64,000 nucleotides of DNA from positions 95,865 to 159,864 of IMG/VR virus record IMGVR_UViG_3300033463_000007. One strand, 5' to 3'. Source of the stretch: a virus. Lineage: Duplodnaviria; Heunggongvirae; Uroviricota; Caudoviricetes. Within the stretch, counting starts at the first letter, position 1; each line of letters opens with the position of its first letter. This document shows positions 4,481-62,976 of this stretch, in pieces. Below the pieces are notes generated by a model that had not been told where the DNA came from, searched no databases, and was given only the letters and a program-made list of their open reading frames with translations. The position numbers and the translations under genes were made by a program.

Positions 4481-5557
4481 ATGCAGGCTAATTATACAGA
4501 TATCTTAATAGAAGAATATGATTATACTTATGGTAAAGATTTTGAATGTATTGATAAAAATTTTTTATATAAATATAAAGGTAAAGATAGTCATGTAATT
4601 ATTCCAGAGGGTATTACTAGTATATGTGCATATGCTTTTGCTTGACAGCCTCAAATAGAAAGTATTACTATACCTAATACTGTTAAAAGTATAGTTAATA
4701 ATGCATTTGATTGCTGTATAAATTTAAAAACTATAAATCTACCGCAAAGTTTAACATCTCTTGGCGATACTGCATTTTGTCATTGTCATAGTTTATCTGA
4801 AATAATTATTCCAGATAGTATTACTCAACTAAAGTTTGCTGTTTTTGCACATTGTGAATCTTTAACTAAGGTAGTTTTACCTAAAGGACTTACCAAAATA
4901 GGTAGTAATGCTTTTCAAGATTGTATTAATTTATCTAATATAAATATTCCAAATAGTCTTACTTCTATAGAACGTGCTGCATTTATGAATTGTACAAGTT
5001 TAACAAAATTAGATCTTTCAAATACTAATATTACTAAAATTGAAGACCTAGCTTTTGCTGATTGTTTTAATTTAACCTCCCTAATATTTCCAGCTTGTTT
5101 AGAAAAAACTGGAACTGATATTATTGATAATTGTGAAAAATTAACACAAATATATTTACCAGATAATATTATAAATATAGCACCCTTTGCTCATAAAACT
5201 GCTTGCAAAATTATAACTCGTAATTGGTCTGCTTTTATGAAATTAATTAGCTTTGATACTTTGAGTAATACTAGTTTAGCTAAATTAAATCCAGACGTTT
5301 ATGATAATTTTCCTTATTATAAAGAAGTTAAAAAAGCAATTACTAATTTTGATTTAACTGGTTTAGAAACACAATTAAACATTTTTATTGCCGCTCTTAT
5401 AGCAATGATATTAAAAAAACCAGCTGTATATGAAGAACTTTTAAACTTTTTAGTCCAAGGTTATTCTAAGGATGAAATAAAAAAAGCAATAAAAGCAGTT
5501 GTAGCAGATAAAGAAAGTATACAAATTGTTATAGATAAACTAAATTCTATTTTATAA
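4481..5557 (+). CDS. BspA-type leucine-rich-repeat protein (358 aa, one TGA-Trp)
   Basis: ATG 4481 with GAGG RBS, open except for TGA at 4643-4645. Repeats of the form IPxxVxxIxxxAFxxCxxL. Full-length paralogue of 10045-11130. Confidence 0.85.
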
Positions 5558-5580
5558 AATAATTAATAAAGATAAGAAGG

Positions 5581-5883
5581 GGTATAGCAAGTAATAGTAT
5601 AAGTTATACAGTTGCACCACAGACAATTAGTTTCAAAGTATATAATACAAACGGTACATCTTATAATACTTATACAGCAGAAGTTGGAATGTCTTGGTAT
5701 ACATTTTGTGAAAATGATGAATATGGTAGATTTATATGTTCACATGAAGAAGGCTTTGTTTGAAATCAAAGCGGAGCAAGTACTATAAGAAATAGAAATG
5801 ATAGTTCAAGAGTATATGGTAATGATGTTATTATAGATAATGGTGAATATAAATGAGCCATTGATGGTGGCGGTGAGAATTAA
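5581..5883 (+). pseudogene. start-less ORF remnant resembling a virion-accessory protein C-terminus
   Basis: Open frame ASNSISYTVAPQTISFKVY... with two TGA-Trp and a TAA stop. No ATG at its start; an upstream in-frame TAA lies at 5560-5562. Confidence 0.4.
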
Positions 5884-5911
5884 AAAATTAATATATTTTA
5901 AGTATAATTTT

Positions 5912-5949
5912 AAAATAGAAGAACATAATAATATGTTCTTCTATTTTTT
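5912..5949 (+). terminator. Rho-independent terminator followed by a sigmaA-like promoter
   Basis: AAAATAGAAGAACATA / TATGTTCTTCTATTTT, then TTGTATATT at 5951; near-identical to 11154-11203. Confidence 0.85.
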
Positions 5950-6000
5950 ATTGTATATTATAATACAAACAAATAAGTCTTACGGAAAGGAATTTTTAAA

Positions 6001-6588
6001 ATGAGACAGATAAGAAAAGGTGTATTTGAAACTAACAGCTCCAGTACTCATAGTATTGCCATCCCTAAAACACATGCTGAGAAGTATCCAAATGTTATTC
6101 ATTTTGGTATAGGAGAATTTGGCTGGGAATTTGAGGAAGTAGATCCTGCTGATTATTTATATACTGCTATTCTAGCTTATTATACTAAGCCATCAGAGCG
6201 TGAAGAAAAGCTTAATGAATTGAAAGCAGCATTAGATGCTCATGACATTCGATATACTATGGATAAGCCTGCTTTCTGGCATTCTGAAGGTTCAGATGCA
6301 TACTATCTTGATAATGGTTATATTGATCATAGTAGTGAGCTGGGTGATTTCTTAAATGCAGTATTTGCAAGTCCTGAAACCCTTCTAGACTTTATATGCT
6401 ATGGACTAGTGTTTACCGGTAATGATAATTCAGATGATGAGGAACGCATTTTTGTTTTTAGAGATTGTCCTACGTATACTGAAGATCATTTTAATTCTGC
6501 TACCAGAGACTGGACATCAGAAGAGAAACTAAATACTTATTATAAAGAAGAATATAATAATTATGATTGGTATGAGAAATGGAATTAA
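6001..6588 (+). CDS. FETNSSS-motif family protein
   Basis: MRQIRKGVFETNSSSTHS; IGEFGWE; GYIDHSS; TGNDN. Confidence 0.85.
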   Translation: MRQIRKGVFETNSSSTHSIAIPKTHAEKYPNVIHFGIGEFGWEFEEVDPADYLYTAILAYYTKPSEREEKLNELKAALDAHDIRYTMDKPAFWHSEGSDAYYLDNGYIDHSSELGDFLNAVFASPETLLDFICYGLVFTGNDNSDDEERIFVFRDCPTYTEDHFNSATRDWTSEEKLNTYYKEEYNNYDWYEKWN

Positions 6589-6625
6589 GATATTAATAAT
6601 ATAAATTTGAAAGGAAATTTTAAGT

Positions 6626-7240
6626 ATGGAAATGTTCAATGGAATGTTTGGAAAAGTGGCCCCCGGAATGTGCAGACTTTCTATGAGCGGAGGACTTGCA
6701 GTAAAGACAAGTAATGGTTATAAGACATATAATCTTAAGACTAACAGACTTACTAACTGCAACAACTTTGTATTTAATATTGGTGAGGAATTTTTCTTCA
6801 TAATTCCCACTAATAAAGTAGAAAAGGGAGACATTATTCTTGTGACTGGTAAGCCAAAGTGTGTTGTAGATGTAGGTAAGGATACAATTAAGGTTATTGA
6901 TTATGAGGATTCTACTGTAAAAGATATTCTTCCAGAGCGTCATGTATTTATGGGTAATACTTATTTCTATGGTAAGATTGTTTCTATGTTTGGTAACGAT
7001 TTTGCTAAGGGTAAGAAAGGCATGAATAAGATTATGTCTTATATGATGATGTCTGAAATGATGAAAGGTAATACCGGCACTGCTAATAATGGCATGAGTG
7101 CTATGCTGCCCTTCATGATGATGTCCGGCGGTAACTTTAATAATATGTTCGATGGCATGTTTGACTTTGATTTTGATACTACAGATGATAATGATGAAGA
7201 TGCTTTTGAAGATGTAGATGATGAAAAGGACGGTGAATAA
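6626..7240 (+). CDS. hypothetical protein with Met-rich and acidic C-terminus
   Basis: ORF track; RBS; MSYMMMSEMM / MLPFMMMSGG segment; first gene of the triad with the vWA and PurA-like genes. Confidence 0.8.
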   Translation: MEMFNGMFGKVAPGMCRLSMSGGLAVKTSNGYKTYNLKTNRLTNCNNFVFNIGEEFFFIIPTNKVEKGDIILVTGKPKCVVDVGKDTIKVIDYEDSTVKDILPERHVFMGNTYFYGKIVSMFGNDFAKGKKGMNKIMSYMMMSEMMKGNTGTANNGMSAMLPFMMMSGGNFNNMFDGMFDFDFDTTDDNDEDAFEDVDDEKDGE

Positions 7241-7242
7241 TA

Positions 7243-8121
7243 ATGGGTGGTGGATCTTGGACTTCTAAAGATTTCGCTTCTTATTCTACTGCAAGAGGAT
7301 TAGATATATCTTATGATAGTAGTGGTTATGCTACAATAGCTAATAAGTATTCTACTCAGGATCTGTATTCATCAAACTTTCTTCAGGATATTCTAAATCC
7401 TTATGGAGTAGTAAGACAGTGTTGTGATTCAGAAGAGCATCCTAATACTATCCCGGTAATACTCGCTTTGGACGTTACCGGTAGTATGGGCGGAGCTGCT
7501 ACTGCAGTTGCTAGAAAACTGAATGAAGTAATGACAAGACTTTATGAGCAGGTTCCTGATGTAGAGTTTTGTATCATGGGTATAGGTGATCTTGACTATG
7601 ATGCTGCACCCATTCAGATATCACAGTTTGAATCAGATATTCGTATTGCTACTCAGCTTGATAAAGTTTATTTTGAAGGTGGGGGTGGCGGTAATGGATT
7701 TGAGTCATATACTGCTGCTTGGTATATGGGATCAAGACATACTGATCTAGATTGTTGGAAACGTGGTCAGAAGGGTATTATTATTACAATGGGTGATGAG
7801 CCTTTGAATCCTTATTTACCAAAGAAAAGATTGGCTCATGTTACTGGTGATAACCTGGAAGCAGATATTGAAACTTCTGCTTTATATAAAGAAGTAACTG
7901 AAAAATTCGATGTATATCATCTGGCTGTAAAAGATGAGGATAGTAGCTATGAGTGGCATAAGAGAGAACTTCATAAATCTTTTGGTAAATATTTTGATGA
8001 AGATCATCTGCGTGTAGTAACTCTCGATAACATTGCAAATGTTATTGTAGATATTATTTCAAAGTCTACTTCGGCAAGTGCAAATGTAATTGAGAATCCA
8101 TCGGAAGGAATTGCGTGGTAA
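7243..8121 (+). CDS. vWA (MIDAS) domain protein
   Basis: ILALDVTGSM MIDAS motif; GGGG...ESY; IITMGDE. Confidence 0.8.
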   Translation: MGGGSWTSKDFASYSTARGLDISYDSSGYATIANKYSTQDLYSSNFLQDILNPYGVVRQCCDSEEHPNTIPVILALDVTGSMGGAATAVARKLNEVMTRLYEQVPDVEFCIMGIGDLDYDAAPIQISQFESDIRIATQLDKVYFEGGGGGNGFESYTAAWYMGSRHTDLDCWKRGQKGIIITMGDEPLNPYLPKKRLAHVTGDNLEADIETSALYKEVTEKFDVYHLAVKDEDSSYEWHKRELHKSFGKYFDEDHLRVVTLDNIANVIVDIISKSTSASANVIENPSEGIAW

Positions 8122-8124
8122 TAT

Positions 8125-9333
8125 ATGGATAAAAAGAAGGTCAAAGTTATTATTGGCGCTAACTATGGCGACGAAGGAAAAGGATTAGCTACAAACTATT
8201 TTTCTTCATTTAGTCATAAATGCTTAAATGTATTATTTAATGGTGGCTGTCAAAGAGGTCACACAGTTGAGCTAATAGATGGTACGCGACATGTATTTCA
8301 TCATTTTGGTAGCGGTACATTTAATGGTGCTAATACATACTTTGACCAAAATTTTATTCTAAACCCAATAATGTTTTGCCAAGAGTATGATGAGTTGAAA
8401 GCTATTATTGATACCCTGCCTCAATGCTACGTATCCCCTGAATGCAGAGTATCTACTCCTTATGATGTTTTTGTTAATCAGATAGTAGAAACAGTTAGGG
8501 GTGAAAATAGACATGGATCATGCGGCTGGGGTATTTGGGAAACTACTCAGAGATATAAAGATGAATGGTATAATCGTCCACTGTCTGATTTAGCTCTAAT
8601 GAGTGATAAAGGACTTTGGCTCTATTTTGCAAATGCAGCTTGCTATGCTATTGATAGATTGGCTACAGAATATAATATATCATATGAAGATATTCCTGAA
8701 GAATATAAAAAGCTTTTTGAATCTGAGACACTCAAGCTTAATTTCATATTAGATTTTAAAAGAATGATTTCTCTTATGAAATTTAAGGAGTTTAATGAAA
8801 TAGCTTCTGAATATGATACTATTATATTTGAAGGCGGGCAAGGTATTGCATTAGATGAAAATAATGTAGAGGAGTATCCAAATGTAACTGCAAGTAGCAC
8901 TACTTCTAATATTCCAATGCAAAGGATAAAAGATTTAGATTGTGATGTAGAAATTTGTTATATAACTCGATCATACTTTACTCGACATGGTGCCGGCAAA
9001 TTTCTTACTGAATGCGCTAAATCAGAGATCAATCCTGATATTGAAGATAAGACAAATGTCTATAATGATTATCAGGAATCTATTAGATATGGATTATTTT
9101 CTTTAAAAGATTTTGAATGGCGAATATTTGAAGATTTTCATAATGCTTGGAAAATAAAATCTGATATTAAATGTTCAGTTTTCATTACACATTTAAATTA
9201 TACAAATGGTAATATAGCTGGTGATTGTGATATTTCAGATATAATAAAAAGATTTGATATAAGTTATTTATGTGATGAAAAATATGGAATGTATGTAATA
9301 AAGAAAGGAAATACAAAAAATGATACAAATTAG
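8125..9333 (+). CDS. divergent adenylosuccinate-synthetase (PurA)-family protein
   Basis: GANYGDEGKG P-loop; NGGCQRGHTV; HGSCGWGIWET; IIFEGGQG; the substrate loop is divergent (TRSYFTRHGAG). Confidence 0.8.
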   Translation: MDKKKVKVIIGANYGDEGKGLATNYFSSFSHKCLNVLFNGGCQRGHTVELIDGTRHVFHHFGSGTFNGANTYFDQNFILNPIMFCQEYDELKAIIDTLPQCYVSPECRVSTPYDVFVNQIVETVRGENRHGSCGWGIWETTQRYKDEWYNRPLSDLALMSDKGLWLYFANAACYAIDRLATEYNISYEDIPEEYKKLFESETLKLNFILDFKRMISLMKFKEFNEIASEYDTIIFEGGQGIALDENNVEEYPNVTASSTTSNIPMQRIKDLDCDVEICYITRSYFTRHGAGKFLTECAKSEINPDIEDKTNVYNDYQESIRYGLFSLKDFEWRIFEDFHNAWKIKSDIKCSVFITHLNYTNGNIAGDCDISDIIKRFDISYLCDEKYGMYVIKKGNTKNDTN

Positions 9334-9706
9334 ACCACATACTTTTGAAACAAATAGTTCAAGTACTCATAGTTTAGTAATGTGTTCAGATGATGAATAT
9401 AAGCTGTGGTTACAAGGAAAAACATATCTATGTATTTGGGAAGGTTATTTTGCGCAAGAAGCTAGAGACAAGTATAATATTCCAGAATTTAAAGAAAATC
9501 AATTTTATCCAGTTGATGAAATAGATAAACTATTTAATGAAACTCTTGCAGAAAATGAATTTGGATATGCATATGATAGATATGACTATTTTCAAACAGC
9601 AGATGAATACTTTGATTCAGAATATCTTGAAAGTTATGATGAAACATATGAAACAAAAAGTGGTGAAATAATTCATGCTTTTGGATTATATGGATATGAT
9701 GGATAA
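9320..9706 (+). CDS. short FETNSSS-motif family protein
   Basis: MIQIRPHTFETNSSSTHS; overlaps the end of the PurA-like gene. Confidence 0.8.
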   Translation: MIQIRPHTFETNSSSTHSLVMCSDDEYKLWLQGKTYLCIWEGYFAQEARDKYNIPEFKENQFYPVDEIDKLFNETLAENEFGYAYDRYDYFQTADEYFDSEYLESYDETYETKSGEIIHAFGLYGYDG

Positions 9707-9776: not shown

Positions 9777-9790
9777 GCTAAATTATATGA
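9777..9790 (+). promoter_or_regulatory. putative phage late promoter, copy 2
   Basis: GCTAAATTATATGA after a terminator. Confidence 0.6.
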
Positions 9791-9837
9791 TATATAATTA
9801 TACAAACTGAAAAATATTATATAGAGGAGATATTTTT

Positions 9838-9987
9838 ATGGGTGTAGATAAATTAAATGATAGATTAATAAATATTGAATCCGCATTAGGCGGGGATACT
9901 CCTGTTCCAGTTGATACAGCTGATAGATTAGATTGGCACTTAGTTGAAATTGAGCGTCTAATTGATTATAATGAAAATTGTAAATAA
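9838..9987 (+). CDS. 49-aa protein homologous to the N-terminus of ORF 12515
   Basis: AGAGGAG RBS; DRLINIESALGGDTP...DRLDWHL versus DHLKNIASALGGSGTP...DKLDWYL. Confidence 0.6.
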   Translation: MGVDKLNDRLINIESALGGDTPVPVDTADRLDWHLVEIERLIDYNENCK

Positions 9988-10044
9988 TATATATGAAGAT
10001 TAATTATATAATTAAATTACTGCTCTATAAAGGGAGTTAATTTT

Positions 10045-11130
10045 ATGAACTATACAGATAGATTAATAGAAAATTATGAATACCCGCCAGAGTTTGAAGT
10101 TGATGATGACGGATATTTTTGTACTTTAGTAAAATATGCTGGTACAAATGCTAATGTAGTTATTCCTAATGGTATTACTGAAATTGGAAGGGACGCCTTT
10201 AGAGGTAATGCTTTTATAGAAAATGTTACTATACCTAATACTGTTAAAAGTATAGAACCTTTAGCTTTCTGTGATTGTAAAAATTTAAAAACTGTAAATA
10301 TGTCTGATAAGCTTTTTTCTATTCATCATAGTGCATTTATGCGGTGTACCAGTTTATATAAAATAACTATTCCAGATAGTGTTAAAGAGGTTGGCTATCA
10401 TACTTTTGATGGTTGTACATCTTTAACCGATGTAGTTTTACCTAAAAAGTTCTACAATATAGTATATGCCATGTTTCAAGATTGCCACAGTTTAATAAAC
10501 ATAAATATTCCAGATAATCTTCATGCTATTGACTCGGCAGCATTTAGAAATTGTAAGAGTTTAACTACCCTAGATTTTTTTAATACCCAGATCGGAGACA
10601 TTGAAAATAATGCTTTTAGTGGTTGTTCGAAGTTATCTACTTTAATATTTCCTAATTGCTTATACAAAATTTATCTTAACTGTCTTGATGGGTGCATAAA
10701 TTTAAAACAAGTTGTATTACCTGCTAATGTAAAATTGCCTATAGAGTCTGATCAGCCAACCTCTTGTAAAATTATAGCTAATAGTTTACATGTATTACTT
10801 AAATTAAGTGGGTATGATTCTTTACATACTGCACGACATACTGTTTGTTTAAATCCCGACTTTTATATTAATTTTCCTTACTATAAAGATATTAAAGAAG
10901 CATCTACTGAATTTGATTTGTCTGAATTTGATTTGTCTATATTTAAGACGGATACCGATATTTTTATTGGTATTATTGTAGCACTAGTATTAAGAAAAAA
11001 TACTATCGCTAAAGAACTTGCTAAAGCTTTATCCTATTCACAAGATGAAATAAAAGCAGCATTAAAGACCGTTACGAATGACACAACAAGCATGCAAATT
11101 ATAGCAGATAAGTTAAATGCACTTAATTAA
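10045..11130 (+). CDS. BspA-type leucine-rich-repeat protein
   Basis: ORF track; IPNxVxxIxxxAFxxCxxL repeats; helical C-terminal domain shared with 4481-5557. Confidence 0.88.
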   Translation: MNYTDRLIENYEYPPEFEVDDDGYFCTLVKYAGTNANVVIPNGITEIGRDAFRGNAFIENVTIPNTVKSIEPLAFCDCKNLKTVNMSDKLFSIHHSAFMRCTSLYKITIPDSVKEVGYHTFDGCTSLTDVVLPKKFYNIVYAMFQDCHSLININIPDNLHAIDSAAFRNCKSLTTLDFFNTQIGDIENNAFSGCSKLSTLIFPNCLYKIYLNCLDGCINLKQVVLPANVKLPIESDQPTSCKIIANSLHVLLKLSGYDSLHTARHTVCLNPDFYINFPYYKDIKEASTEFDLSEFDLSIFKTDTDIFIGIIVALVLRKNTIAKELAKALSYSQDEIKAALKTVTNDTTSMQIIADKLNALN

Positions 11131-11153: not shown

Positions 11154-11203
11154 AAAAAATAGAAGAACATATTAGTGTGTTCTTCTATTTTTTATTGTAT
11201 ATT
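11154..11203 (+). terminator. Rho-independent terminator plus sigmaA-like promoter
   Basis: AAAATAGAAGAACATA / TGTGTTCTTCTATTTT, then TTGTATATT at 11195. Confidence 0.85.
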
Positions 11204-11231
11204 AATATAGAATAATTTTTGGAGGCTGTTA

Positions 11232-12119
11232 ATGAAAGTTATCGGATCATATAAGAATGGTAATTATAAGGTAATTATATTTGAAGATGGTACAAAGGTA
11301 AGAGCAAATAATCTTAACTTTTTTAGACCAGACATGCCTGAATCAATGGATATTAAAATTACTAACATGTGTGATATGGGCTGTAAACAATGTCATGAGG
11401 ATTCTATACCTGATGGTAAGCATGGCGATATTATGAATCTTAAGTTTATAGAGACACTCCATCCTTATACAGAACTTGCTATTGGCGGTGGTAATCCTCT
11501 TGCTCATCCTGATCTCGTTTCTTTTTTGGATAAATGCAAGTCGCTTAGACTTATTCCCTCTATGACAATTAATCAGGTTCATTTTATGAGAGATTATGAG
11601 CTGGTTAAATTTCTTGTAGATAGCAAACTTATTTATGGCCTGGGTATTTCATTAACTAATGCCAGAGACGAGAAGTTTCTTGATTTAGTTAAGCAGTTTC
11701 CTAATGCTGTTATTCATGTAATTGCTGGATTGGCATCTATTAGAGACTTACAGTATCTCGCAGATCGTGGTCTTAAAATTCTTCTTCTTGGTTATAAGCA
11801 ATTTAGAAGAGGCGAGAGTCTATATAGTAAAGATTCAAAAATTATTGATCAGAAAATTCAGGATCTTAAGGATAATCTTGGACAGGTTACTTCTTGGTTT
11901 GATGTAGTAAGTTTTGATAATCTTGCAATTAAGCAGCTTGATCCAAAGCGTATTCTCACAGATGAGGAGTATGACGAATTCTTTATGGGCAATGATGGTT
12001 TTGCAACTATGTATGTAAATTGTGTAGAAGAGGAATTTGCAGTATCTTCAACGTCTACAGAAAGATATCCTATTAAAGATAATATAAAAGATATGTTTGA
12101 AGTAATACGAAAGAGGTAG
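11232..12119 (+). CDS. radical SAM protein (no SPASM domain)
   Basis: CDMGCKQC (CX3CX2C); AIGGGNPL. Confidence 0.9.
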   Translation: MKVIGSYKNGNYKVIIFEDGTKVRANNLNFFRPDMPESMDIKITNMCDMGCKQCHEDSIPDGKHGDIMNLKFIETLHPYTELAIGGGNPLAHPDLVSFLDKCKSLRLIPSMTINQVHFMRDYELVKFLVDSKLIYGLGISLTNARDEKFLDLVKQFPNAVIHVIAGLASIRDLQYLADRGLKILLLGYKQFRRGESLYSKDSKIIDQKIQDLKDNLGQVTSWFDVVSFDNLAIKQLDPKRILTDEEYDEFFMGNDGFATMYVNCVEEEFAVSSTSTERYPIKDNIKDMFEVIRKR

Positions 12120-12125
12120 TTATAT

Positions 12126-12425
12126 ATGACATATGAAATATTTGAATTAGAGAGAGATACTAAAGAAATATCTATTGAGCAGGCTATTTTAAATCTACAA
12201 CAACAGCAGTGAGAGTTTAATGATAATTATGTAGATTTTGCAGGTGTTAATGCTGCATATGATTATGCTATAGAATTATTAAATAAGCAGATTCCAAAGC
12301 CACGAAAAGTAATACCAGATCCTAATTATTTATGGCAATTTCAATGCCCTGTTTGTGATCAGATATTATCGCCTGCATTTTCATTTTGTCCACATTGTGG
12401 CCAAGCAGTAGAACAGTCAAAATAA
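12126..12425 (+). CDS. 99-aa zinc-ribbon protein (one TGA-Trp)
   Basis: ATG 12126; TGA at 12210-12212; downstream KQIPKP...CPVCD...FCPHCGQ; TAA 12423-12425. Confidence 0.75.
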
Positions 12426-12475: not shown

Positions 12476-12489
12476 GCTAAATTATACGA
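12476..12489 (+). promoter_or_regulatory. putative phage late promoter, copy 3
   Basis: GCTAAATTATACGA after a terminator, heading the 12.5-25 kb operon. Confidence 0.6.
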
Positions 12490-12514
12490 GATCTTATAAA
12501 GGAGTTTCAATATA

Positions 12515-13387: not shown

Positions 13388-13413
13388 CACAAATATAAGG
13401 AGTATTATTTCTT

Positions 13414-13980
13414 ATGCCTAATATACAAATAAATATTAATGAAAATAAAACAACAACACTAGCTACAGCTGGAAAGTATTGTGCAGATAATATTGATATA
13501 GTTACAGCAGTTCCTTCTGTTGGTGGGGTTTATTTAAGTGATGCTTCTGTAAGTGGCAGCACTTTAACATTAACAAAGCTTGATAAAACAGTTGATCCTG
13601 AGACATCTACCACAATAACATTTACTGCCTCTGATTCTATTTTATGATGTACTTCATCAACCACTTATGGAGATATAACAACAGCTTTAAGCAGCAGTAA
13701 AATTCCTGTTTATAAATCTGGCAATACTTTATATTTTTATACCGGTACCGGAACAAATAGTTATATTTTTAGTAGGACTTACGGAAATACTATTTCCCAA
13801 ATTGAAGTTACCTCTTCTGGCTGAGGCAGTGTTGTTTCATCTGTATTAGAGCTTAATTCTAATAAAGCATCTACAATAAATGCTTCTTCACAAACAGCTG
13901 CCACAGATTTTCCAACAGTATCAGCGGTAGCTACATATGTTCAGAATGAGATTTCTACTGCTTTATCGGCTTCTTATTAA
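13414..13980 (+). CDS. putative virion accessory protein (188 aa, code 4)
   Basis: Track ORF 13414-13647 reads through two TGA to TAA 13978-13980; S/T-rich; motif WCTSSTTYGDITTAL shared with fibre genes. Confidence 0.75.
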
Positions 13981-13996
13981 TAAAGGAGTATAGTTA

Positions 13997-16349: not shown

Positions 16350-16351
16350 TT

Positions 16352-17344: not shown

Positions 17345-17391
17345 TAAAATAGAACTAATATTTTATTAAAATTTTTAAGAGATAAACAAAA

Positions 17392-18237: not shown

Positions 18238-18252
18238 GAGGGGGTGAGGTAA

Positions 18253-52000: not shown

Positions 52001-54949
52001 ATGTCAGCATTAAAAAATGTCATATATTTAAGTAATGAAGATTATAATACTTTAATAAGTACCGGAACAGTTACAATTAATGGTACTACTTTAACATATG
52101 ATGAAAATAATGTTTATATTACACCAGATCCGCTTGCAACAACTACAGATCCTGGTTTAATGAGTGCTGCAGATAAAGTTAAATTAGACGATATTATTAA
52201 TCGTACAGCGGCTGAAAGTGGAGAAGATTTATCACTTGTAACTACAGGTGATAAATATAGATGAGACCACATTTCTGGTGATAATCAAACTATAAAAGGC
52301 AATGGTACTTCTTTTGGTGTAAATGAGGCTGTTAATATTGTGCCAGGAACAAATGTATCAGTTACCGCTGCTACTTCTGGTGATGGTGCACCTAAAATAA
52401 CCATTGCATCTACTAATACTACTTATACTTTAACGCAACCTCAAGGTGAAGCTAATAAAGTTGTTTTAACTGGTAGTGATAATCCATCTTCACCAACAAC
52501 AATTACAATAAATAATGTTGCACATGCTACTGCAGCAGATTCCGCAACAAATGCAACAAATGCCACGGAAGCAACACATGCAGTATCTGCAGATTCGGCT
52601 ACAACTGCAACTTCAGCCAATACAGCCGGAAATACTACAAATTTAGATGGACACCCATCAAGTTACTATGCAGTAGATACAAATGTAGTTCATAAAACTG
52701 GTGATGAAACTATTTCTGGTACAAAAACATTTAATATTAGACCAGAATTAGTTGGTTCAAGACTTCCAAATACCTACCAAGAAGTTAATTATTTAAGTTT
52801 TAATGGTTCAACAGGTTATGTAGATACCGGAATTGTTATAACAGTTGCCAATAATTTATCTATAGAAATTGATGCCAATTGAAGGGGTAATAATACTGCT
52901 TTTGCCACTTTTTTTGGATATATGAAATCAACATCAGAAGTTACGCCAAGATGTGCATTTAGTATTTATAGCAACAGATATATGATTGGTATCAATAGTA
53001 CTACATCTAGTAGTGCCACACCAGTATCTGGCAGACATATATATAAATTTTATACCACATCAGGTGGTCAGCAAATTTTAGATGTAAATAATATTACTGC
53101 AGTTTCAACAAGTTATTCCTCCGATGCCTTAAATAATAATCAATTAACTTCTTATATTGCTGCAAGAAATACCGCAAATACAGCGGGCAATTTTGCAGAT
53201 ATTGATATTTATTCTGTTAAGATTATTCATAATAATATTAGTTATGATTTGGTACCTTGTTATCGTAAGTCTGATAACCAAACAGGCTTTTATGATACAA
53301 TTCATGATACATTTTTACCATCAACCGGTGGTGTAACAAAAGGCGATAATATTTCAGCTAGTACTTTTATGGTTGCAAATGATTTTGCAGCTGTAGCTTT
53401 TACAGGTGAATATAGTGCTTTAAAAAATATACCGACTATTCCAACTGGCGATAATCAAACCATTAAAGCTAAAAATTTAGGCGGTACAGATGTAATTTTT
53501 GGTACTAATGCTACAATTGAACTTACTGCAGGCTCAAATATTACTTTAACTCCTAATAATACAACTAATACAATTGAAATTGCTGCAGATAATACTACCT
53601 ATGAAAATCTTTCAGCAGCTCAGGGCGGTACAGATGTTTCTCTTGTAACAACTGGTGAAAAATATACCTGAAATGATAAGATATCTTCTCGTCCAGATGG
53701 CACAAATCTTTTATTAACTGGAACAACGCCAAAAATAAATACTGTTTACTTACCAGATTATATTCTTGGTCAACTTATTTATGGCGGCACACTAAATGCT
53801 AGTACAACAGTTGCAACGCTTTCTGCTGATGCTAAGGCTAAATTAAACACAAGTAGTAATACAATTACTCTGACAGCTAATACTGCTACAACAACAGGCT
53901 GAGGTGCAAATAAAGGTATTTATTACATTGTGGCTACGGCCGGTACAGTTTTTCAAAATACTGAATATGTATTAAGTCTTGAAGTTGGAGATTGGCTTCT
54001 TTCTGATGGCTTAAAATGAACAAAAATTGATAATACAGATGCAGTTTCAAGTGTACAAATAGGTGCAAACTCGCCACTTAGTTCTAGTACAAGCACAGCC
54101 CAGACCGGAAATGTTTCTACAACTATTTCACATAATAAAGTATTAGGAGATACAAAAGCTACTACGACAGCGGGTATTTATGGAATAGCTATAGATACCT
54201 ATGGACATATAACTGATTTAAATACAACAATGAAATTATCTAGTTCAAGGGTAGATGATGGGAATCCGTATCAAACGCAAGTTGGTGCAACAAGATTTGT
54301 AACTCCTGAGATGTATGAATATCTTGATGATAAATTATATCAGCGTCCTGCAATATCTACTTTTACTTTATATAATAACGGAAGTGCTGTATCCACAACT
54401 GTTGAAAAAGGTACTACTGTAACAGTTGGTCAAATAAGGCACCTAGAAACAAATATAGGAAATATTGCTACATTAAAATTAGATAGTGAAAATATTACCC
54501 CGGTTTCAAGTACAACAACTGCAAACTTAGCAACTGCTTTAACGATCACTTCTACAACTACTAAAACTTTAAGTGGCACAAATACAAAAGGAGAATCTTT
54601 TACAAAAACTGCAACTATTAATGTTTATAGTTATGCATATAGTAGATTAGATACCTCTACAACTACTCCAACATCTCTTTTAACAAAACAGAGTGTTTAT
54701 ACTACTTTTCAAAGTAGTGGTGCAAGTTTTTCTTATTTGACAGGTCAGTACTTATATTTATATGTACCAACCGTAAGTACAGCTACCAAAATGCAAACAA
54801 ATGTTTTAGGTCAATGAGTAGATGTTGCTTATACAAATATTGGAACAGTTACTATTACAAAAGCAAATAATACGACTGAAAGCTACAAATGTTTTAGAAC
54901 AACCGGTACTTTCTCATCTGCTGGTACAGCAACTTATAGGGTAGCTTAG
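52001..54949 (+). CDS. tail-fibre-like protein (982 aa, code 4)
   Basis: Joins track ORFs 52001, 52340, 52922 and 54230; VVHKTGDETISGTKTF; LamG-like module. Confidence 0.85.
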
Positions 54950-54970: not shown

Positions 54971-57900
54971 ATGGCTTTAACAGTAAATACAAATATTGTA
55001 AATGATGGTGATAAATATTTACTAGATGCTAAAAATGTTAAAGGTACATTTAGTGTAATTTCTTCCTTTGATGAGTTAGAGCATCCGACAGCACATACAA
55101 TTTATCCAACTCAGATTGTTGGTAGTTTAGTTTATAACACCTCTGACTCTAAATTTTATAGATACAATGGAAGCACCTGAGATGAGGTATTTACAAAAAT
55201 AGATACAGATACTAATACTTGACGCACTATTAAAGTTAATAATACGGAAATATTAGGAAGTGCTACTTCTACAAATGCTTTAAACTTAGTACCTGGTACA
55301 CATCATATTTCAGTAACACCAGAAAATAGTAGTGGCTATACTGGAAAAATTACTATTGACACTGATCTTGAAAGTAAGACAGCTGCTTCTGGCGGTACAG
55401 CTGAATCATTAGTAACAACAGGTGAAAAGTATACTTGAAATAATAAATCAGATTTTTCTGGAAATTATAATGATTTAACTAATAAGCCAACATTATTTTC
55501 TGGAAATTATAATGATTTAACAAATAAACCAACCATTCCAACAGTTAATAATGCAATTTTAACTATTACTCAAAATGGAACTGGCATTGGTACTTTTACT
55601 GCTAATTCAAATACAGATACAACTATTGAAGTTACTGATACTACATATAGTTCGGAAACTGCCGAGCAAGGTGGCACAGCAGTTTCTCTTGTAACAACAG
55701 GTGAAAAGTATATATGAAATAATAAACAAGATGCTATAACAATAGATAGTGCAGTTAGTCTATCTTCCTCAAATCCAGTTCAAAATAAAGCTATCGGGAA
55801 TTATATAGCTGCTCGTGGTGAACATTTATTAACAAATGGATTTGCAAATTTAAAAAATAATTATAACTTCACAGCATTCGCTTATGATGGCAGCGATACC
55901 TATTATGCAAATGGTTGCTTTAAAAAGATGGGCTGGGGTGCTTATGCTACCTATACTAATGATGAGCCTATTCCAGTCGATGTTAATATGACATATCGTT
56001 TTGATTTTTACACCAAAACGAATCATTCTGGTGCGCAAGTAAATGGTTATATTCGTGCTTATGATATAGATGGTAATGAAATTGGCTCATATCAGGTTGC
56101 ACCTCGTGCTAATACTTTAACAACATTAGCACAAGACTTAAAAAATGGTGATACTAAGATATATCTTACAGATATGTCTAATTGACAAAGTACAAATCTT
56201 GGAACAAATAATGCTTCTATATTAATTTATGGATATGCTAACTCTTACGGTTATATATATCCACCAGAGACTTATACAAGATATAGATATACTAGCTTAT
56301 GATCACAAGCATCTCAAATGGACTATGAGAATAATTGTATTACATTAACTAGTGCTTGAAATAAGGGTCCTTTTTCTGCTGGAACTCCAATATCACAAGG
56401 ACAAGATGGTTCAGGTGCATTATATTGTAATATTGATGATGTTAGTATAACTTGCACTCTTAAAACAGACTCTGATTCTGCCACACAGGCAATGAATGGT
56501 TGAGAGCATCACTGATATCATATTAATGGTGTCCAAAATAAAAATACTTTTGCTACAAGCCAATTTCCTTTTGGCACAGCTTATATTAAAGTAGGCTTAA
56601 TGAATCGTATTAGCCAAGCCTCTACAGAATATTTTAAGTTATCTACAATGTCTATGACCACTTCAGCAGCATCTGTAGACCAATTTAAGATTCCGTCAAG
56701 TACAGGCTCTTATAACTATGATTATCCACTATTATTTAAAAATCATAAAAATCAAAATACTGAAGTAGCCAATACGAGTTTTGCAACCACTTTAACTTAT
56801 AACCCGCATTCTAAAGTATTAAAAGTAAATGGTACTGCTGCAGTTTTAACTGACACAAAAAATACAGCTGGTACTACTAATAAGGCCGCTACAAAGTTAT
56901 TCTTAGTTGGTGCTCAAACACAGGAAGCAAATCCAACCACTTATTCAAATGTAAATTGTTATATTGGTACTGATAATTGTTTATATAGTAACGGACAAAA
57001 AGTATTAACATCATATACTCCCGGTGTAGATACAAATCAAACTATAACAGCTGCAAATGTAACTTTTGATCCTGATGTTGAAGTTGAGCTTGTTGCTGGT
57101 TCAAATATTGGAATAACAGCTGATAGTACACACAATCAAATTATAATATCTTCTACTGCATCTGGCAGTAATCAAATGGTTAAAGCTGGGGATGTTACAT
57201 TTGATGCAAATGATATAGTTAATTTTGTAAATGGTGATAATATTAGTGTAGTAGGTGATGCAACAGCTAAAACTATTACCATTACTGGTACATCACCCGG
57301 TAATGGCATACTAACTTTAAACAGAAATGCCGAACTTGGTAATTCTAAGGTTGAGGTTGGTACTTTTACCGCAAATCAATCCACCAATACTAGTTTAGAT
57401 ATTTCTGATTTATATTATTGTACTTATAGTGCTACTGGTGAAGGTACAACAGTTGCTGAGATAGATGCTGCCTTAGCTGCTAATAAATTACCAGTTTGCT
57501 GATTTTCAAATAGATTATATATTTATTTTGGTATAAATAGTAATTATAGATACTTCTCTTGTGTTACAAATAGGTCCGCTTATATTATTCGTATTATAGC
57601 AGATAGTAGCAGTGCCGATTTTAATAAATGAAGTAATGACTATGATACTTTTGAATTTCAATATTATAAAAGAACAAGCACACAAGGTTGGGGTGGTGGC
57701 GATTTAACTAATGTTAATAATAATAATTATCCATCTGAAAAACTTGTATATGATTCATTGAGTCAAGTAAAGCAAAGCATACCAAGTATTACACTTACTG
57801 CCACAGCTGGAGAGGAAGCACTTACAGTTAATGCAACCGGCCCGGTAAATCTTGCTACAAGAGATACTGCACAAACAATAAGCGGAGCTAAAACATTTAG

Positions 57901-58432
57901 TACTGCAGTAACTTTAAATAATAATATTTCACTGCAGGGTAAAACTAGTACTGGTACAGCGACCTATAATCTAGTTAAAGTAAATAATGTTGCAAATGGC
58001 ATTGAAGTAGGTGATGCTAATACTGCATTAATCCTACAATCAAGTGGTTCTGTAATTCCAAACGGTAATGGCACTAAAAGTTTAGGTGCTGCCAGCTATA
58101 GTTGAGATAAATTATATATTTCCGGAGCTATATTGGATGGTACAAATAGTTATGGTTTAGTTTTACCAAGCACTTCTGGATGATCATCTAGTAAAACTAT
58201 TGCTACAACAGATCAACTAGTTAATAAAGTTAATCCTGCTACAGATAATGCAGCAGTTCGTTTTGATGGCACTTCAGGGGCAATACAAGATAGTGCAGTT
58301 ATTATTACTGATGATAAGCGGGTAAAAGCCCATGGTTATATTTTACAGACAACAGCAAGTAGTACAACAACAGATAAAGTAGAAATGCTGTATGATGCAA
58401 GCGAAGAATGTATTAAGTTTGTATTTAATTAG
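54971..58432 (+). CDS. tail-fibre-like protein (1,153 aa, code 4)
   Basis: Joins track ORFs 54971, 55928, 56600 and 57758; FSGNYNDLTNKPT duplicated; C-terminal MLYDASEECIKFVFN. Confidence 0.85.
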
Positions 58433-58444
58433 AAAGGAATTCAT

Positions 58445-60850
58445 ATGAGCTTAATTTTACATTTACCTTTAAATGGAAATTTAAATAATTATGGGTGTTC
58501 TGATGCAGTTGCTACCGCAAGTAATATAACACTTAGTAATGATGGATTAATTGATAAGACTTACTCATTTAATACTTCTTCAACAAATAATTGTATAATA
58601 TTAAGTAATTGTAGTGATTTATATAGCTGTTTTACTGGCGGAAATCAACAATTTTCTATTTGTTTTTGAGTCTATGACCAAGATGGTAATGGTTCAACAA
58701 ACGCAATGCGTGCTGTTTATTTTGGTGATTATGAATTAACTGGAACAATGCAGTTCAATGTAGAAAAATCTGCAAATGGCAGGTTTAGAGTATACTGAGA
58801 TCCAAGCGGAAATCCAGCTGGCTTTGATTGGTATGCTGGAGATACTTCTACTCTTATACCTCAAGAGGTTTGAACACATGTAGCACTTATTTATGATGGT
58901 ACTGCTTTAAAGTGTTATTTAGATGGGGTTTTAAAAGGCGTTCGTGATGGTATAATACCAGCCAGAAATAAAACAGCTGGTAATTTTCAAATTGGTAAAG
59001 ATAGTAGAAATGGTGATACTGCTTTTCAGGGTAAAATAAATGATTTTAGAATTTATGATCACGCTTTATCTATAAAAGAACTAAAAGAATTACAAAAAAA
59101 ATTAGTTTTACATTATACTTTTTCTGATAAGAGCATTGAACCAACAACAAATTTGTTAAAATATGATGATACGTCACCTGTTTATAATGGAAGTACTACT
59201 AAATGATCCCGTTATGGAAATGGTGTTCAATTAAATCCATCTGCCTACCCAAGTGATACTTACTGATTTTTTAGATTAGCTTCAGGTGCAACATCATTAA
59301 CAGCAAATACTACTTATACACTTTCTTATGATGTAACGGGATTAACTGTTAATAATATTAGTTTTAAATTTGCAAATAAATACGGTCCATATACTTTACA
59401 TAATGGCCACAATGAGCATACTTTTACAACAGACAGTTCTGAATTACGGATATTTTATGATGATAATGGTACTAATTCAGCACAAGGACCCTATCAAATA
59501 ACTAATTTTCAATTGGAACAAAAAGATCATGGCACATCTTGAGTCATTGGCTCACGAACTTTTGAGCCTGTAATTGATATCAGCAATAATGGGTATGATT
59601 CTATTACAAATACTAATCTATTAGTAGTGGATGCAAATGCATATGGTTCTACGGCTTTGCAGTTAGGCTCATCTAAATATATGTTAGCGCCCGCTTTACC
59701 CGCATCTTGTAAAACAAATTGTACTGTTTGTTTTTGGTATAAAGGTGCTGTTACAAGCGGAAATGTTGTATTTGCAGATGCTACATCGGAAACTTGTGTA
59801 GGTTTTTACTCAAATAATACTGTAATTGTTGCTGCCGGCACCAGCTCCTCAACTAAATTTGTTCAAAAACGACAGCATTGAAAAGATAATGAGTGAAATC
59901 ATGTTGCAGTTGTATATGGTAATGGTACTTATACTTTATATATTAATGGGGAAGCCTGTGAAGCCAATACAAATAAAAACTATTGAACATGTACTTCTAC
60001 AAATTTTCTAATGGGCTGCCGTTATAATGGTTCTTATAACCAATTTGCAAATGGACAAGTGACCGATTTTAAAGTTTATAAAACACAATTAACAGTTGCC
60101 GAAATTTTAGATGAATATAAAATAAAAAGTTTAATTTACAACAATGGCTTATTAGAATGTGCCGAATTTTCAGAAAGTGTTTCTAATATAATATTACCAA
60201 ATAAATCAGGCATAGTTAAGGCAACAACAATAAGTGAAGGATCTAGTCAAGTAAAACTTTATGGCGGGTATACTTTATTAAGTTATATTCAAACTTCTGG
60301 TAGTCAATATATTAATACTGGTACTAAAGGGAGTGCTGGCTTAAGTTTTAACTTACAAGTAGCTTTTACTGAACAAACAAGCAGTTTCCAAATGAATGGC
60401 TGAAACTCAGATGCCCAAATAGGTATTGATTCCTCTAAATATTGATGAAATCGTCAAAGAGGAGCTTCACCTACTTTAAATACAATTAATCAAATATATA
60501 ATACTAAATTAGTTATAGGTGAAACTACTTCAAGCTTATATATTAATGATGTATTGGAAGTCACTTCAAATTTGGCTTCAAATTATAATAGTAAAGTATT
60601 TTGTGTTGGTGCTACTATTGGTAGTTCAATACAATTTTATGCCAGGGAAAAAGTATACCGATTAACTGTAAATGATTCAAATAATAATATTATTGCAGAT
60701 TATATTCCCGTTAAAAAGAACGCTACTAATGCTTTAGGATTATATGATTTAATAAGTAATAAATTTTATGCCGGAACTGGCACACTTACTGCCGGAAATG
60801 AATTAGGCAGTATAAGTCATATTGATGCTTATCAGCTTATAGAACAATAA
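58445..60850 (+). CDS. multi-LamG domain tail protein (801 aa, code 4)
   Basis: EV(TGA)THVALIYDG and NE(TGA)NHVAVVY LamG motifs; FQGKINDFRIYDHALS. Confidence 0.88.
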
Positions 60851-60873
60851 TAGCGAAAGGAAAGCTATAATAC

Positions 60874-62976
60874 ATGGCAGAACTTAAAAGTACAAATATA
60901 AATGGAAATTTAAATGTTACAGGTAAGATAACTGGTGGTAAAGTTGTAAGGTATGATACCAATGCCCAAGGTTTAACTGATACGGAAAAAGCTAATGTCA
61001 GAACAAATATTGGGGCTGGTACTTCTAATTTTACTGGTTATACGGCTTCAAATAAGTTATCAACTGATTACATTAACAATACGGCCGGTTGAACTTCAAA
61101 TAGCGGTACTGTAACAAGTGTTGCAATTGGTACTGATACACCTGCATTATCAGTTACAGGATCGCCTATTACTGGTTCTGGAACAATCAAGGTAGATGTG
61201 GCAAGTGGTTATACTATTCCAACAACTACTGATTGAACTAATCGAGCTAAAATTTATTGAGCAACTTATGGAACTACTACTTATGATGAAATAAAAACGG
61301 CAAAAGATAGCGGATATTATGTAGCAGTACGTTATACAAGTAATGAAGTTACAGGTACAAATATTTATGGTAATTTATATGCATCCGAACATTCGAACTG
61401 ATATGGTTTTACTAGTTTAGCTCGTACTTCAAAAAGTGGTATTTGAGGTACTACTACTAATTGTATTTATTGTGCTAAAAGTACTGATGGTTCTTCTAGC
61501 TGAACTGCAGATCAAGTATGACTTGGTAGTGGTACTGTTACATCTATTAATAATGTTACACCCAATAGTACGGGTGTAATTAATTTAACTGCAAGTGATG
61601 TATATGCTTTACCAAGCTCAACAAATTATTTAGCAAGTATTACAAAAACAAATAATTCAATAACTATAGCAAATAATACTGGAAATGAAGTATCTTTTTC
61701 GATAAAATATTATCCGCATACTATACAATTGACTGGAACCTCAGGTAATCGCACATATCATCTTAGATTTATATCTCCATCACCCACTTTATTAACAACT
61801 TGGGATAGTTTTTATGCTGCTTGTTCTACAAATGAATTAATTTTTATCTCTGGGTATTGTACAGCTCCATCTGATTCTACAAAATTTGTTATCACGGATT
61901 GAGGCACAACTTTTGGAACTACGGTACCCGGTGATAGTAGTACAGCATATTTAATGTATAATGCTTATGCACAAACTGCACTCGGAACAAATGCTTCTTC
62001 TGGTGAAACTTGAACTTGAATTAGCCCAAATCTTTTGGGCAACCAAATTGCATCTATTACAGATAGAATAACGTCCCAAACTACTACTATTACATATTTA
62101 ACTGGAAATCTCTCGGTTGGTAGCACTAATACTGTAGCTCTTGGTGCTGGCATTGATACTGTTATAATTTATTGAAAATATGAAGATGATGATGATTCAA
62201 TTTGGGAATATAAAGTTATTTCTGCTAATATGCCATATGAAGAGGATGGAGATTATTTAAGGTTAAATGATGCAGGCACTCTGTCATATTATCTTAATTC
62301 TACAACATGAGGTGATGGCTATAGCACAGAACCAAAATATTTAGCTATTCAAAATACTAATTATATACCTTTTGTAAAAGATATTTACTATGAATCCGCT
62401 AGCATCCCTGGTAATGCAGTAACTGGTGTCTGGGATTGCAATGGAAATTGTAAATTTGCATTATGTGAAAAATATGATAAAAGAAAGCCTTTTGATGGAG
62501 ATGTAACTATAGCTAGGGGGCCTTGTTTGCAGGGTGTAGGAGATACTACTTGAACAATATCTTTACCAAGTATAAGTACTGTTTCATATTCAGCTGGAAA
62601 TCTTTCATATACTATAAATGCCAATACTCCGCCTGCTCTTGAAATATTTGCGCTTTGTGCTCAGCAAAAAGCAAGTAGTTATAATTTAACACATGATATA
62701 AGCACAATAACTGATACTAATGTAGGTGATGTTTATATTAAAATTGGTACACCTCCAGCAGATGTTTCTGATTGAACTTATTATGTTACGGGGCCAAACA
62801 CAAATTTACCTGAATCTATACAAGCTAATAAAATATATATATGAAAAAATAGTAGTAGTGATGTTTGAATTTATGGCCACCGGCTTTCAAGTGGGGCTAT
62901 AAGTTATAGTAATCCTGTAGAAATTACTCTTATGGGAGATACACAATTAAAAGTTATAAATAAATTTAATTCATAA
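60874..62976 (+). CDS. tail-fibre-like protein (700 aa, code 4)
   Basis: Single frame to TAA 62974; MAELKSTNINGNLNVTG; many TGA-Trp. Confidence 0.85.

Follow-up and report, generated by a model that had tools for sequence, protein, structure and literature searches.

The stretch of DNA analyzed here (herein the window; 64,000 nucleotides, bases 95865 through 159864 of the 232,051-bp IMG/VR record IMGVR_UViG_3300033463_000007) raises the question of how one phage genome can hold genes rich in in-frame TGA codons next to genes that have none. The original prediction, made from the letters of the window alone, was that TGA is recoded to tryptophan and concentrated in late, virion genes, so that early genes could be translated by a standard-code (code 11) host while structural genes would need a later switch of code. 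We find that TGA is read as Trp in the recoded genes, that genes fall into two classes, that class is linked to promoter motif, and that the genome carries a code-change module comprising a split tRNA(UCA), a tryptophanyl-tRNA synthetase (TrpRS), and the release factor RF1. We are confident, if not certain, that the record represents a complete T4-like jumbo phage of the “Jade” type, ~232 kb long and from the bovine gut, that uses two genetic codes one after the other. Coordinates are window positions unless marked “genome.”

CheckV estimates the completeness of the 232,051-bp genome at 100%; it has a terminal overlap of 222 bp, a GC content of 30.6%, and nearly all of its genes on the + strand. 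It encodes a T4-like virion core (large terminase [TerL], portal, gp21-type prohead protease [Peptidase_S77], and Gp23-type major capsid protein [MCP]). The sequencing runs that contain its sequence are bovine-gut DNA runs only, from two studies, with no RNA run listed. For comparison we used three IMG/VR relatives reached via the capsid protein: G001 and G005, to which protein-level identity is only ~50%, and G003, which has a GC content of 38%.

Coding density, determined by greedy tiling of open reading frames (ORFs) over the whole genome, is 0.699 under code 11 and 0.926 under code 4, compared with 0.744 if TAG is taken as sense. Reading TGA as sense lengthens the median ORF from 130 to 210 aa; in the window, ORFs that are short under code 11 are fused by code 4 into long genes ending in TAA or TAG, for example the 2897-aa ORF at 41374-50067. 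G001 and G005 are recoded too (0.92 to 0.93 under code 4 versus 0.70 to 0.72 under code 11), while G003 is a standard-code relative (0.875 versus 0.886 in the code comparison). In-frame TGA codons total 452, with up to 37 in one gene. When TGA was masked as X, 43 of 75 sites aligned to W in G003, against a W background of 0.9%, and none of the 75 to G; Y (11 sites) and F (7 sites) were among the other residues, and this substitution spectrum is the same as that for TGG. TGA and TGG also swap freely between the recoded genomes.

Individual sites agree with this assignment. TGA occupies the expected Trp positions at 23165-23167 (within ITwHGGEP) and 58871-58873 (within EVwTHV), and the W of SLVTTGxKYxW is TGA in all five copies (42724, 52262, 53669, 55436, and 55715). 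The counts given in the original prediction were reproduced exactly, both for the giant ORF at 41374-50067 (35 TGA and 7 TGG) and for the blocks said to use TGG only (0 TGA and 18 TGG at 6001-9706; 0 and 19 at 27635-30791; 0 and 11 at 35106-38238). Papain-family proteases share the known motif NSWG...WG; in the papain-type peptidase encoded next to RF1, this catalytic-site motif reads NS(TGA)GLE(TGG)G.

Use of TGA separates the genes sharply into two classes, and the difference proposed for the window holds genome-wide. Among the 96 genes with at least four Trp codons, 36 are without TGA (2.6 expected) and 8 without TGG (1.8 expected), and per-gene TGA use is strongly overdispersed (χ2 = 582, 190 df, p = 2e-41). 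In TGA-containing genes the TGA share of Trp codons is 0.76, and the corresponding A-ending shares are 0.82 for Lys, 0.81 for Glu, 0.78 for Gln, and 0.83 for Arg-AGR. In the TGA-free class only 2 of 316 Trp codons are TGA (314 TGG), despite a similar A-bias of the other codon pairs, and TGA is excluded entirely from more than half of the genes. Shares of 0.76 and 0.01 indicate that one class uses TGA as an ordinary synonymous codon while the other excludes it under strong selection. Where a lone TGA does occur in an otherwise TGG-only ORF, it mostly falls in the first 25 codons, an artifact that arises when ORFs are called from the most distant start. Orthologs tend to share the same class (Spearman 0.75 with G001 and 0.63 with G005).

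The classes also differ in function. None of 15 annotated genes for replication, nucleotide metabolism, or translation contains TGA, compared with 8 of 11 for packaging, virion, or lysis-type functions (Fisher p = 1e-4). The TGA-free annotated genes include those for NrdD, DNA polymerase A (N-terminal part), an SbcC-like protein, GyrA- and GyrB-like topoisomerase subunits, RNA ligase/Pnkp, thymidylate synthase, dUTPase, nucleoside deoxyribosyltransferase, a helicase-loader-like protein, TrpRS, and RF1. TGA-containing genes (TGA, TGG) include TerL (7, 3), portal (3, 1), Peptidase_C1 (9, 2), and CHAP (8, 0), and in the window an Ig-domain protein and the BppL_N- and LamG-bearing giants of 38-63 kb. 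Core genes are consistent across genomes, with TerL and portal TGA-rich and MCP, topoisomerase, and TrpRS TGA-free. Thus the claim of a concentration in “late/virion” genes stands as a class split and needs qualifying as a statement about virions: most late window ORFs have no family match (PHROGs name few window ORFs, and Pfam likewise leaves most late ORFs without a name), and the TGA-rich set includes enzymes, namely NUDIX (9, 2), a polysaccharide pyruvyl transferase fusion (10, 3), and two radical-SAM genes. Few window genes are shown to be virion genes; for most late window ORFs that label is presumptive.

Gene class is tied to promoter type independently of annotation. Wherever a gap of 45 nt or more precedes a gene, the DNA before that gene was searched de novo, and three recurrent motifs emerged. 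Motif (a) (TCGCTCAAAA, TTTACA, ~17 nt, TATAAT) is a canonical sigma70-like promoter, found before the small genes of the 78-97 kb region and at window positions 615 and 29169. Motif (b), ATTGTATAWTATA, is a -10-type (TATAAT-type) element that mostly lies directly after a terminator hairpin. Motif (c), (T)GCTAAATTA(A/T)(T/A), is late-type and strand-specific, with 31 copies on the + strand genome-wide, 26 of them intergenic, and 5 on the - strand. In the window, GCTAAATTA occurs 11 times (2.6 expected) and ATTGTATAWTATA 11 times (3.2 expected), counts reached by none of 100 shuffles in either case. With each gene assigned to the last motif upstream of it, genome-wide TGA:TGG counts are 349:186 for motif (c), 34:202 for (b), and 5:80 for (a), or 39:282 for (a) and (b) together. 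The split within the window is 139:49 in (c) units versus 11:72 in (a)/(b) units (odds ratio 18.6, Fisher p = 2e-21), and it recurs in the recoded relatives, with TGA shares of 0.63 (G001) and 0.60 (G005) versus 0.16 and 0.13. Together, the gene-class and promoter splits support the proposal that early genes are translatable under code 11 and structural genes require a switch. GCTAAATTA is likewise strand-biased and intergenic in standard-code G003, which implies that recoding was laid over a pre-existing late regulon.

The machinery for such a switch, which the original prediction suggested might lie elsewhere in the genome, is found ~15 kb downstream of the window as a module of split tRNA(UCA), TrpRS, and RF1, all TGA-free. 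TrpRS (genome 177006-177995) matches TIGR00233 with 324.1 bits (cut-off 176.75) and PF00579 with E = 8e-58; its closest database homologs, 80 to 81% identical, are on contigs. RF1 (genome 177999-179060) scores 472 bits with NF001859 (cut-off 400) and 466.8 with TIGR00019 (cut-off 423), compared with 260.9 bits against prfB, under the cut-off of 370, and its translation carries the PET and GGQ motifs. RF1 had no exact-match contig, and a single-protein search with it returned no IMG/VR relative. The genes after RF1 encode Peptidase_C1 (9 TGA), a 148-aa ORF (3 TGA), and a CHAP protein (8 TGA). Peptidase_C1 starts 38 nt past RF1 with no GCTAAATTA motif between them; its nine TGA codons would block translation until the suppressor was active, whatever its promoter.

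The tRNA of this module is interrupted. Default ARAGORN and Rfam tRNA searches (E ≤ 1) found no intact tRNA(UCA) genome-wide, and ARAGORN with relaxed thresholds or in mitochondrial mode gave noise only. Allowing introns, ARAGORN detects three split tRNAs in the genome, all with encoded CCA, among a total of nine tRNA genes. The split tRNA at genome 174676-175039 was labeled Ala(UGC), with a mismatched stem; we rejected this label since a perfect stem (GCGGU/ACCGC) and the group I rule (5′ exon ending in U, intron ending in G), which all three split tRNAs obey, give the loop CUU|CAAA and the anticodon UCA. At the same place, ~2.5 kb upstream of TrpRS, G001 and G005 have an uninterrupted tRNA(UCA), which the joined exons match in the loop CUUCAAA, the 4-nt variable loop, G73, and CCA. 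Splicing of the 290-nt intron would join ...GCGGUCUU to CAAAACCGC..., and the tRNA(UCA) gene has its own ATTGTATAATATA motif ~95 nt upstream and, as read from the sequence, a terminator hairpin downstream. Visual inspection shows P3 and P7 of the intron pairing, with compensatory changes between the paralogous introns. Two of the three introns encode homing endonucleases, of PF11645 and HNH type; the former, in the tRNA-Asn intron, is an I-Ssp6803I-type PD-(D/E)XK enzyme (PF11645; PDB 2OST, E = 8e-10). The intron-exon 2 junction of the suppressor tRNA is unchanged in a contig of an independent DNA study, and no intron-less joint was seen at this tRNA among the DNA contigs examined. The tRNA(UCA) is presumably spliced.

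Based on these data, we propose the following scheme. Genes behind sigma70-like promoters or the “-10 only” element ATTGTATAWTATA have no in-frame TGA, encode Trp by TGG, and stop at TAA or TAG, and a standard-code cell could translate them; this set would supply replication, nucleotide metabolism, tRNA repair, homing endonucleases, and the code-change module itself. The tRNA-Trp-like opal suppressor (UCA, G73, encoded CCA) would first have to lose its 290-nt group I-like intron. Once tRNA(UCA), TrpRS, and RF1 were made, UGA would be decoded as Trp, and the GCTAAATTA genes would then be translated in full: those for terminase, portal, the tail-fiber-like giants, the LamG, immunoglobulin (Ig), and leucine-rich repeat (LRR) proteins, the papain-type and CHAP peptidases, and some enzymes. 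In this late class TGA would be a plain synonymous Trp codon at compositional equilibrium. The order of the promoter classes in time is deduced, whereas the Trp assignment, the two classes, the promoter-motif link, and the presence of the module are observed.

Beyond the two classes, TGA use has a fine structure. In late genes of the three recoded genomes, the TGA share of Trp codons is 0.86 to 0.88 before A and 0.66 to 0.78 before other bases (p = 0.002, 0.0005, and 0.02), the base with the lowest share varying by genome. A 3′ A favors UGA suppression by tRNA-Trp in E. coli. The preference for TGA before A fits selection for efficient decoding, or a mutational context. As terminators, TGA codons are almost purged here, compared with 46 of 243 ORFs (19%) in standard-code G003. 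The expectation that no gene clearly ends in TGA was borne out for nearly all genes and falls short for two or three candidates among the ~136 TGA-free genes, each with its TGA a few codons before TAA or TAG: window 1-573, genome 174031-174555, and the HNH ORF in the tRNA-Thr intron. In the window 1-600 gene (7 TGG) the first in-frame stop is TGA, followed by TAG or TAA nine codons on; in the gene at genome 174031-174555 (6 TGG) the interval is six codons. These TGA codons may be genuine terminators with a back-up stop, and the two products may gain a short tail after the code switch.

The scheme resembles several known systems in part. In phage T4, transcription runs as an early, middle, and late cascade. 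The genome shares with T4 its Gp23, Portal_T4, and gp21-type protease (gp13, gp19, and baseplate proteins are found in a close relative) and has distinct promoter classes with sigma70-like early promoters; it differs in its late-type motif, GCTAAATTA rather than TATAAATA, and in adding a translational code switch over the transcription classes. Code-4 Mycoplasma and Spiroplasma have low GC and more TGA than TGG, read TGA as Trp with a tRNA(UCA), and need RF1 as their sole release factor. They use TGA uniformly, whereas this phage brings its own decoding machinery and keeps TGA out of more than half of its genes. Crass-like phages with TAG recoded to Gln were reportedly described by Yutin et al. 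in 2021. The parts of Peters et al. (2022; PMC9523058) that we consulted describe TAG-to-Gln recoding in crAss-like and Lak phages, with metaproteomic proof for the crAss-like ones. As in those phages, the reassigned stop lies in late, structural, and lysis genes and not in early ones, and suppressor tRNAs are phage-encoded; stop codon, amino acid, and phage lineage differ, and their hosts are Bacteroidota.

The closest counterpart is the “code change module” described for two Jade phages in the consulted passages of Borges et al. (bioRxiv 10.1101/2021.08.26.457843). Measured against those passages, the genome agrees in size (232 kb, within 210 ± 35 kb) and animal gut habitat; in having TGA as Trp in several structural and lysis modules scattered over the genome; in carrying suppressor tRNA, TrpRS, and RF1 in the standard code directly upstream of TGA-containing lysis-type genes; and in belonging to a clade that includes standard-code relatives. 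It differs from them in that the suppressor tRNA is interrupted by a 290-nt group I-like intron and so escapes tRNA finders run at default settings. The MCP is 83% identical to that of the ENA contig JS_AP1_S143_scaffold_136784, whose name resembles in style that of the Jade representative JS_HF2_S141_scaffold_159238 given in the same passages. The genome is a further member of the published Jade-type recoding. It also differs from its recoded relatives, with 9 tRNA genes and RF1 here and 20 to 29 tRNA genes without RF1 in G001 and G005 (loci L031 and L089), both of which have tRNA(UCA) and TrpRS; tRNA-Trp(CCA) is present in the two relatives and absent from this genome. Borges et al. reported the “code change” operons from which the AP1 and HF2 TrpRS:tRNA(UCA) pairs are taken; in E. 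coli these pairs place Trp at UGA codons to an extent that RF2 limits by competing with them (PMC12636597; bioRxiv 10.1101/2025.10.30.685624). Like the AP1 pair, the present one comes from a phage code-change operon and has G73 in its tRNA; unlike those of AP1 and HF2, this tRNA must first be spliced.

Several points weigh against a strict two-code sequence. In each of the three recoded genomes, all four Trp codons of the MCP gene are TGG and none is TGA (at a TGA share of 0.76, such a run of four has p ~0.003 per genome), and the prohead protease has 0 TGA and 2 TGG here while containing TGA in the recoded relatives; MCP and prohead protease therefore need no code switch. The stretch 16352-20675 is TGG-rich though inside a late unit, and the radical-SAM genes at 22880-25055 break the promoter rule, with 7 TGA behind a TATAAT-like motif. 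TGA and TGG do not differ in relative position along late genes (Mann-Whitney p = 0.46), so there is no sign of early placement to maximize a block. Operon assignment ignored terminators, and the temporal meaning of all three motifs, including “late” for (c), is drawn from gene content. The T4 late consensus TATAAATA shows no enrichment, strand bias, or gene-start association (64 + and 60 - copies) and was dropped as the late promoter in favor of the de novo motif. The match of the tRNA(UCA) intron to RF00028 is full-length (1-253) and weak (17.7 bits, gathering score 50; E = 0.03), and a standard-code host is suggested by TrpRS lineages rather than by identification of the host itself. No gp55-like late sigma factor was found among ten TGA-free proteins searched.

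Two readings differ on what the code switch does for the phage. It might be a separately timed, leaky layer over the conserved late regulon, doubly delayed by self-splicing of the tRNA, with the intron and the capsid exception as functional parts of a timer; it would be costly through competition with host RF2, so that selection keeps the capsid gene free of TGA and favors TGA before A. We give this full version a small chance of being right. Permissive drift is a serious contender, with a little less than an even chance: without any timer, strong AT pressure would turn TGG into TGA wherever tolerated, which means genes used only once the suppressor has been made, and purifying selection would clear the early genes. 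That would account for a TGA share (0.76) at the A-ending share of other NNR pairs (0.78 to 0.83), a neutral equilibrium, and for the lack of positional bias along late genes, and the presence of the late motif and late gene set in standard-code G003 would leave timing to transcription. Drift leaves the 4/4 TGG of MCP in three genomes unexplained, unless suppression is costly; we take the TGA-free MCP as probably the mark of selection that keeps a costly codon out of the most abundant protein. Nor does it fit easily with Peptidase_C1, where, in the absence of its own GCTAAATTA, the code and not the promoter would set the timing, or with the report, in the consulted passages of Borges et al., that lysis-linked families prefer the recoded codon beyond background.

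Other readings fare worse. The host might itself use code 4 and lack RF2, with the phage matching it and the TGA-free genes being recent standard-code imports. A GC content of 30.6% is Mollicutes-like, the phage has RF1 and no RF2, and the closest named bacterial TrpRS (47 to 55% identity) are from Anaeroplasmataceae/Anaeroplasma, Acholeplasmatales, Candidatus Onthovivens, Erysipelotrichaceae, and unclassified Bacilli. Such a phage would not need its own tRNA(UCA) and TrpRS and should use TGA uniformly rather than in shares of 0.01 and 0.76; the purge over 316 core-replication Trp codons, the conservation of class among orthologs, and a clade member (G003) with the standard code and 19% TGA stops would go unexplained. 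All five bacterial genomes with the closest TrpRS encode two PCRF-domain release factors each, which is consistent with RF1 plus RF2 and, as far as domain content can tell, argues against a code-4 source lineage; the consulted passages of Borges et al. (bioRxiv 10.1101/2021.08.26.457843) predict standard-code Firmicutes as Jade hosts. We regard a code-4 host as very unlikely and a standard-code host as the better inference. Recombination of code-4 and code-11 phage lineages, rather than expression time, could likewise have produced two classes. The TGG-rich 16352-20675, with its higher GC and three tested genes without an ortholog in the three relatives, has the look of such a mosaic, many window genes are lineage-specific, and homing endonucleases and introns speak of active DNA exchange. 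Yet the classes track promoter type genome-wide and in two relatives at ~50% protein identity, and conserved core genes fall consistently on both sides (TerL and portal versus MCP, topoisomerase, and TrpRS), which makes a mosaic origin unlikely. That TGA has a meaning other than Trp, be it selenocysteine, the Gly of code 25, or low-level readthrough, is almost certainly wrong: ARAGORN does label the relatives' tRNA(UCA) “SeC,” from the anticodon alone, whereas the masked sites are Trp and never Gly, with Tyr and Phe next as for TGG, 452 in-frame TGA at up to 37 per gene are incompatible with selenocysteine or leaky readthrough, and the module has TrpRS and a tRNA with G73, as reported for the AP1 tRNA(UCA) (PMC12636597).

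The two-code layout is needed for annotation, given that standard gene callers break about a quarter of the genome's coding sequence, and the link between TGA use and promoter classes recoded genes as late without annotation. Whether recoding is an adaptation that times lysis or a by-product that is tolerated at some cost to translation is a question on which the equilibrium codon usage and the absence of TGA from the capsid gene both have a bearing. Natural orthogonal UGA decoders of the kind formed by the tRNA, TrpRS, and RF1 are now used in genetic-code expansion. New here are the finding that late-class codon usage is at equilibrium, the near absence of TGA as a stop, and the +4 A context; relative to the consulted passages of Borges et al., so are the promoter-class link, including the motif in a standard-code relative, and the conserved TGA-free capsid gene.

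The window alternates between the two kinds of unit, and those described below are all on the + strand. After a sigma70-like promoter (TCGCTCAAAA, TTTATAA, TATAAT), the unit at 615-2575 holds four small genes (0 TGA, 12 TGG), including one for a Lar-like protein (1691-2575). Paralogous BspA-type LRR genes each form a unit of their own with GCTAAATTA upstream: in 4438-5557 the motif (4438-4446) precedes the gene at 4481-5557 (1 TGA, 1 TGG), and in 9777-11130 it precedes the paralog at 10045-11130. Between them, ATTGTATATTATA (TATAAT-type) heads a TGG-only block of five genes (5950-9706; 0 TGA, 18 TGG). Within this operon of otherwise nameless-function genes lies a divergent adenylosuccinate-synthetase-like gene (8125-9333), which matches PF00709 (E = 4e-33) and a PHROG annotated as PurZ-type and scores far under the NCBIfam cut-offs for PurA and PurZ; a DNA-base-modification pathway is possible. 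The unit at 11185-12425 has a variant TATAAT-type motif, a radical-SAM gene (0 TGA, 1 TGG), and ORF 12126-12425. The last (1 TGA, 1 TGG) had been listed as an exception to the early/late rule, as had 10045, 16352, and 18253; 18253 (0 TGA, 6 TGG) is a real outlier, and 10045 is uninformative, having no Trp codon.

A 10-gene late unit behind GCTAAATTA follows (12476-22812; 31 core TGA, 29 TGG), with the gene for the Ig-domain protein at 15159-16349 and an ORF with 14 TGA at 20687-22039. Its TGG-rich sub-block at 16352-20675 (1 core TGA, 17 TGG) has a GC content of 0.33 to 0.36, compared with 0.27 to 0.31 in neighboring DNA. ORFs 16352, 18253, and 19080 have no ortholog in the three relatives, and 19080 (1 TGA, 6 TGG) is a further real outlier beside 18253. 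The sub-block is probably a recent acquisition, the simplest reading, or else encodes abundant virion proteins; ESM Atlas gave weak Ig/β-sandwich leads only for 16352 and 18253. The two radical-SAM genes at 22880-25055 (7 TGA, 1 TGG, including the site at 23165) come next, with their TATAAT-like motif at 22828, and then a GCTAAATTA unit of four small genes (25104-27597; 9 core TGA, 11 in all, and 1 TGG). The TGG-only block at 27635-31007 (0 TGA, 19 TGG) has TATAAT-type motifs and the sigma70-like motif at 29169, and encodes a YunG-like protein, a dCMP-deaminase, and a 437-aa protein with a Hydrolase_2 cell-wall-hydrolase domain (12 TGG).

The tRNA island at 31962-34854 holds tRNA-Leu(UAA) (31962-32038), tRNA-Gln(UUG) (33380-33454), tRNA-Asn(GUU) (33549-34222), and a tRNA with the anticodon CAU, Met or Ile2 (34783-34854; Rfam 40.9 bits, missed by default ARAGORN). 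ARAGORN and Rfam found no tRNA(UCA) within the window. The tRNA-Asn gene is split by a 599-nt group I-like intron that contains the PD-(D/E)XK homing-endonuclease ORF (33683-34132, 149 aa); its exon ends in U and its intron in G, and an internal guide GCAGCC pairs with exon GGCUGU. A code-4 ORF at 34764-35039 was discarded as spurious because it overlaps the tRNA at 34783-34854. The region 34763-38238 has two ATTGTATAATATA motifs (34763 and 36796), each before TGG-only genes: DUF2828/DUF7788 at 35106-36662 (0 TGA, 9 TGG) and an FAD-dependent protein at 36838-38238 (0 TGA, 2 TGG). The remainder is largely a 24.6-kb late unit of 10 genes behind GCTAAATTA (38307-62976; 98 TGA, 16 TGG). The giant gene at 41374-50067 encodes a repeat protein and had no match by megablast against INPHARED phages. 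It is followed by genes at 50069-51985 (8 TGA, 0 TGG), 52001-54949 (BppL_N baseplate motif; 6, 1), 54971-58432 (13, 2), 58445-60850 (LamG; 12, 2), and 60874-62976 (16, 3). At 63049-63721 another unit begins, with its GCTAAATTA motif and first gene.

Elsewhere in the genome, the large terminase ORF (genome 14732-18319) is 1195 aa long, and relatives align across just 41% of it. Additional matches to PHROGs for helicase loaders and primases point to an insertion, perhaps an intein. A phage transfer-messenger RNA (genome 209640-210045; Rfam RF00023, 85.5 bits, E = 1e-32) lies directly upstream of tRNA-Pro(UGG). At genome 206885-207078 there is a 61-nt tRNA-like element with acceptor, D, and T arms and no anticodon arm (RF00005, 40 bits), and ~60 nt 3′ of it a c-di-GMP-I-GGC riboswitch-like match of 45 bits, below the gathering score of 59.

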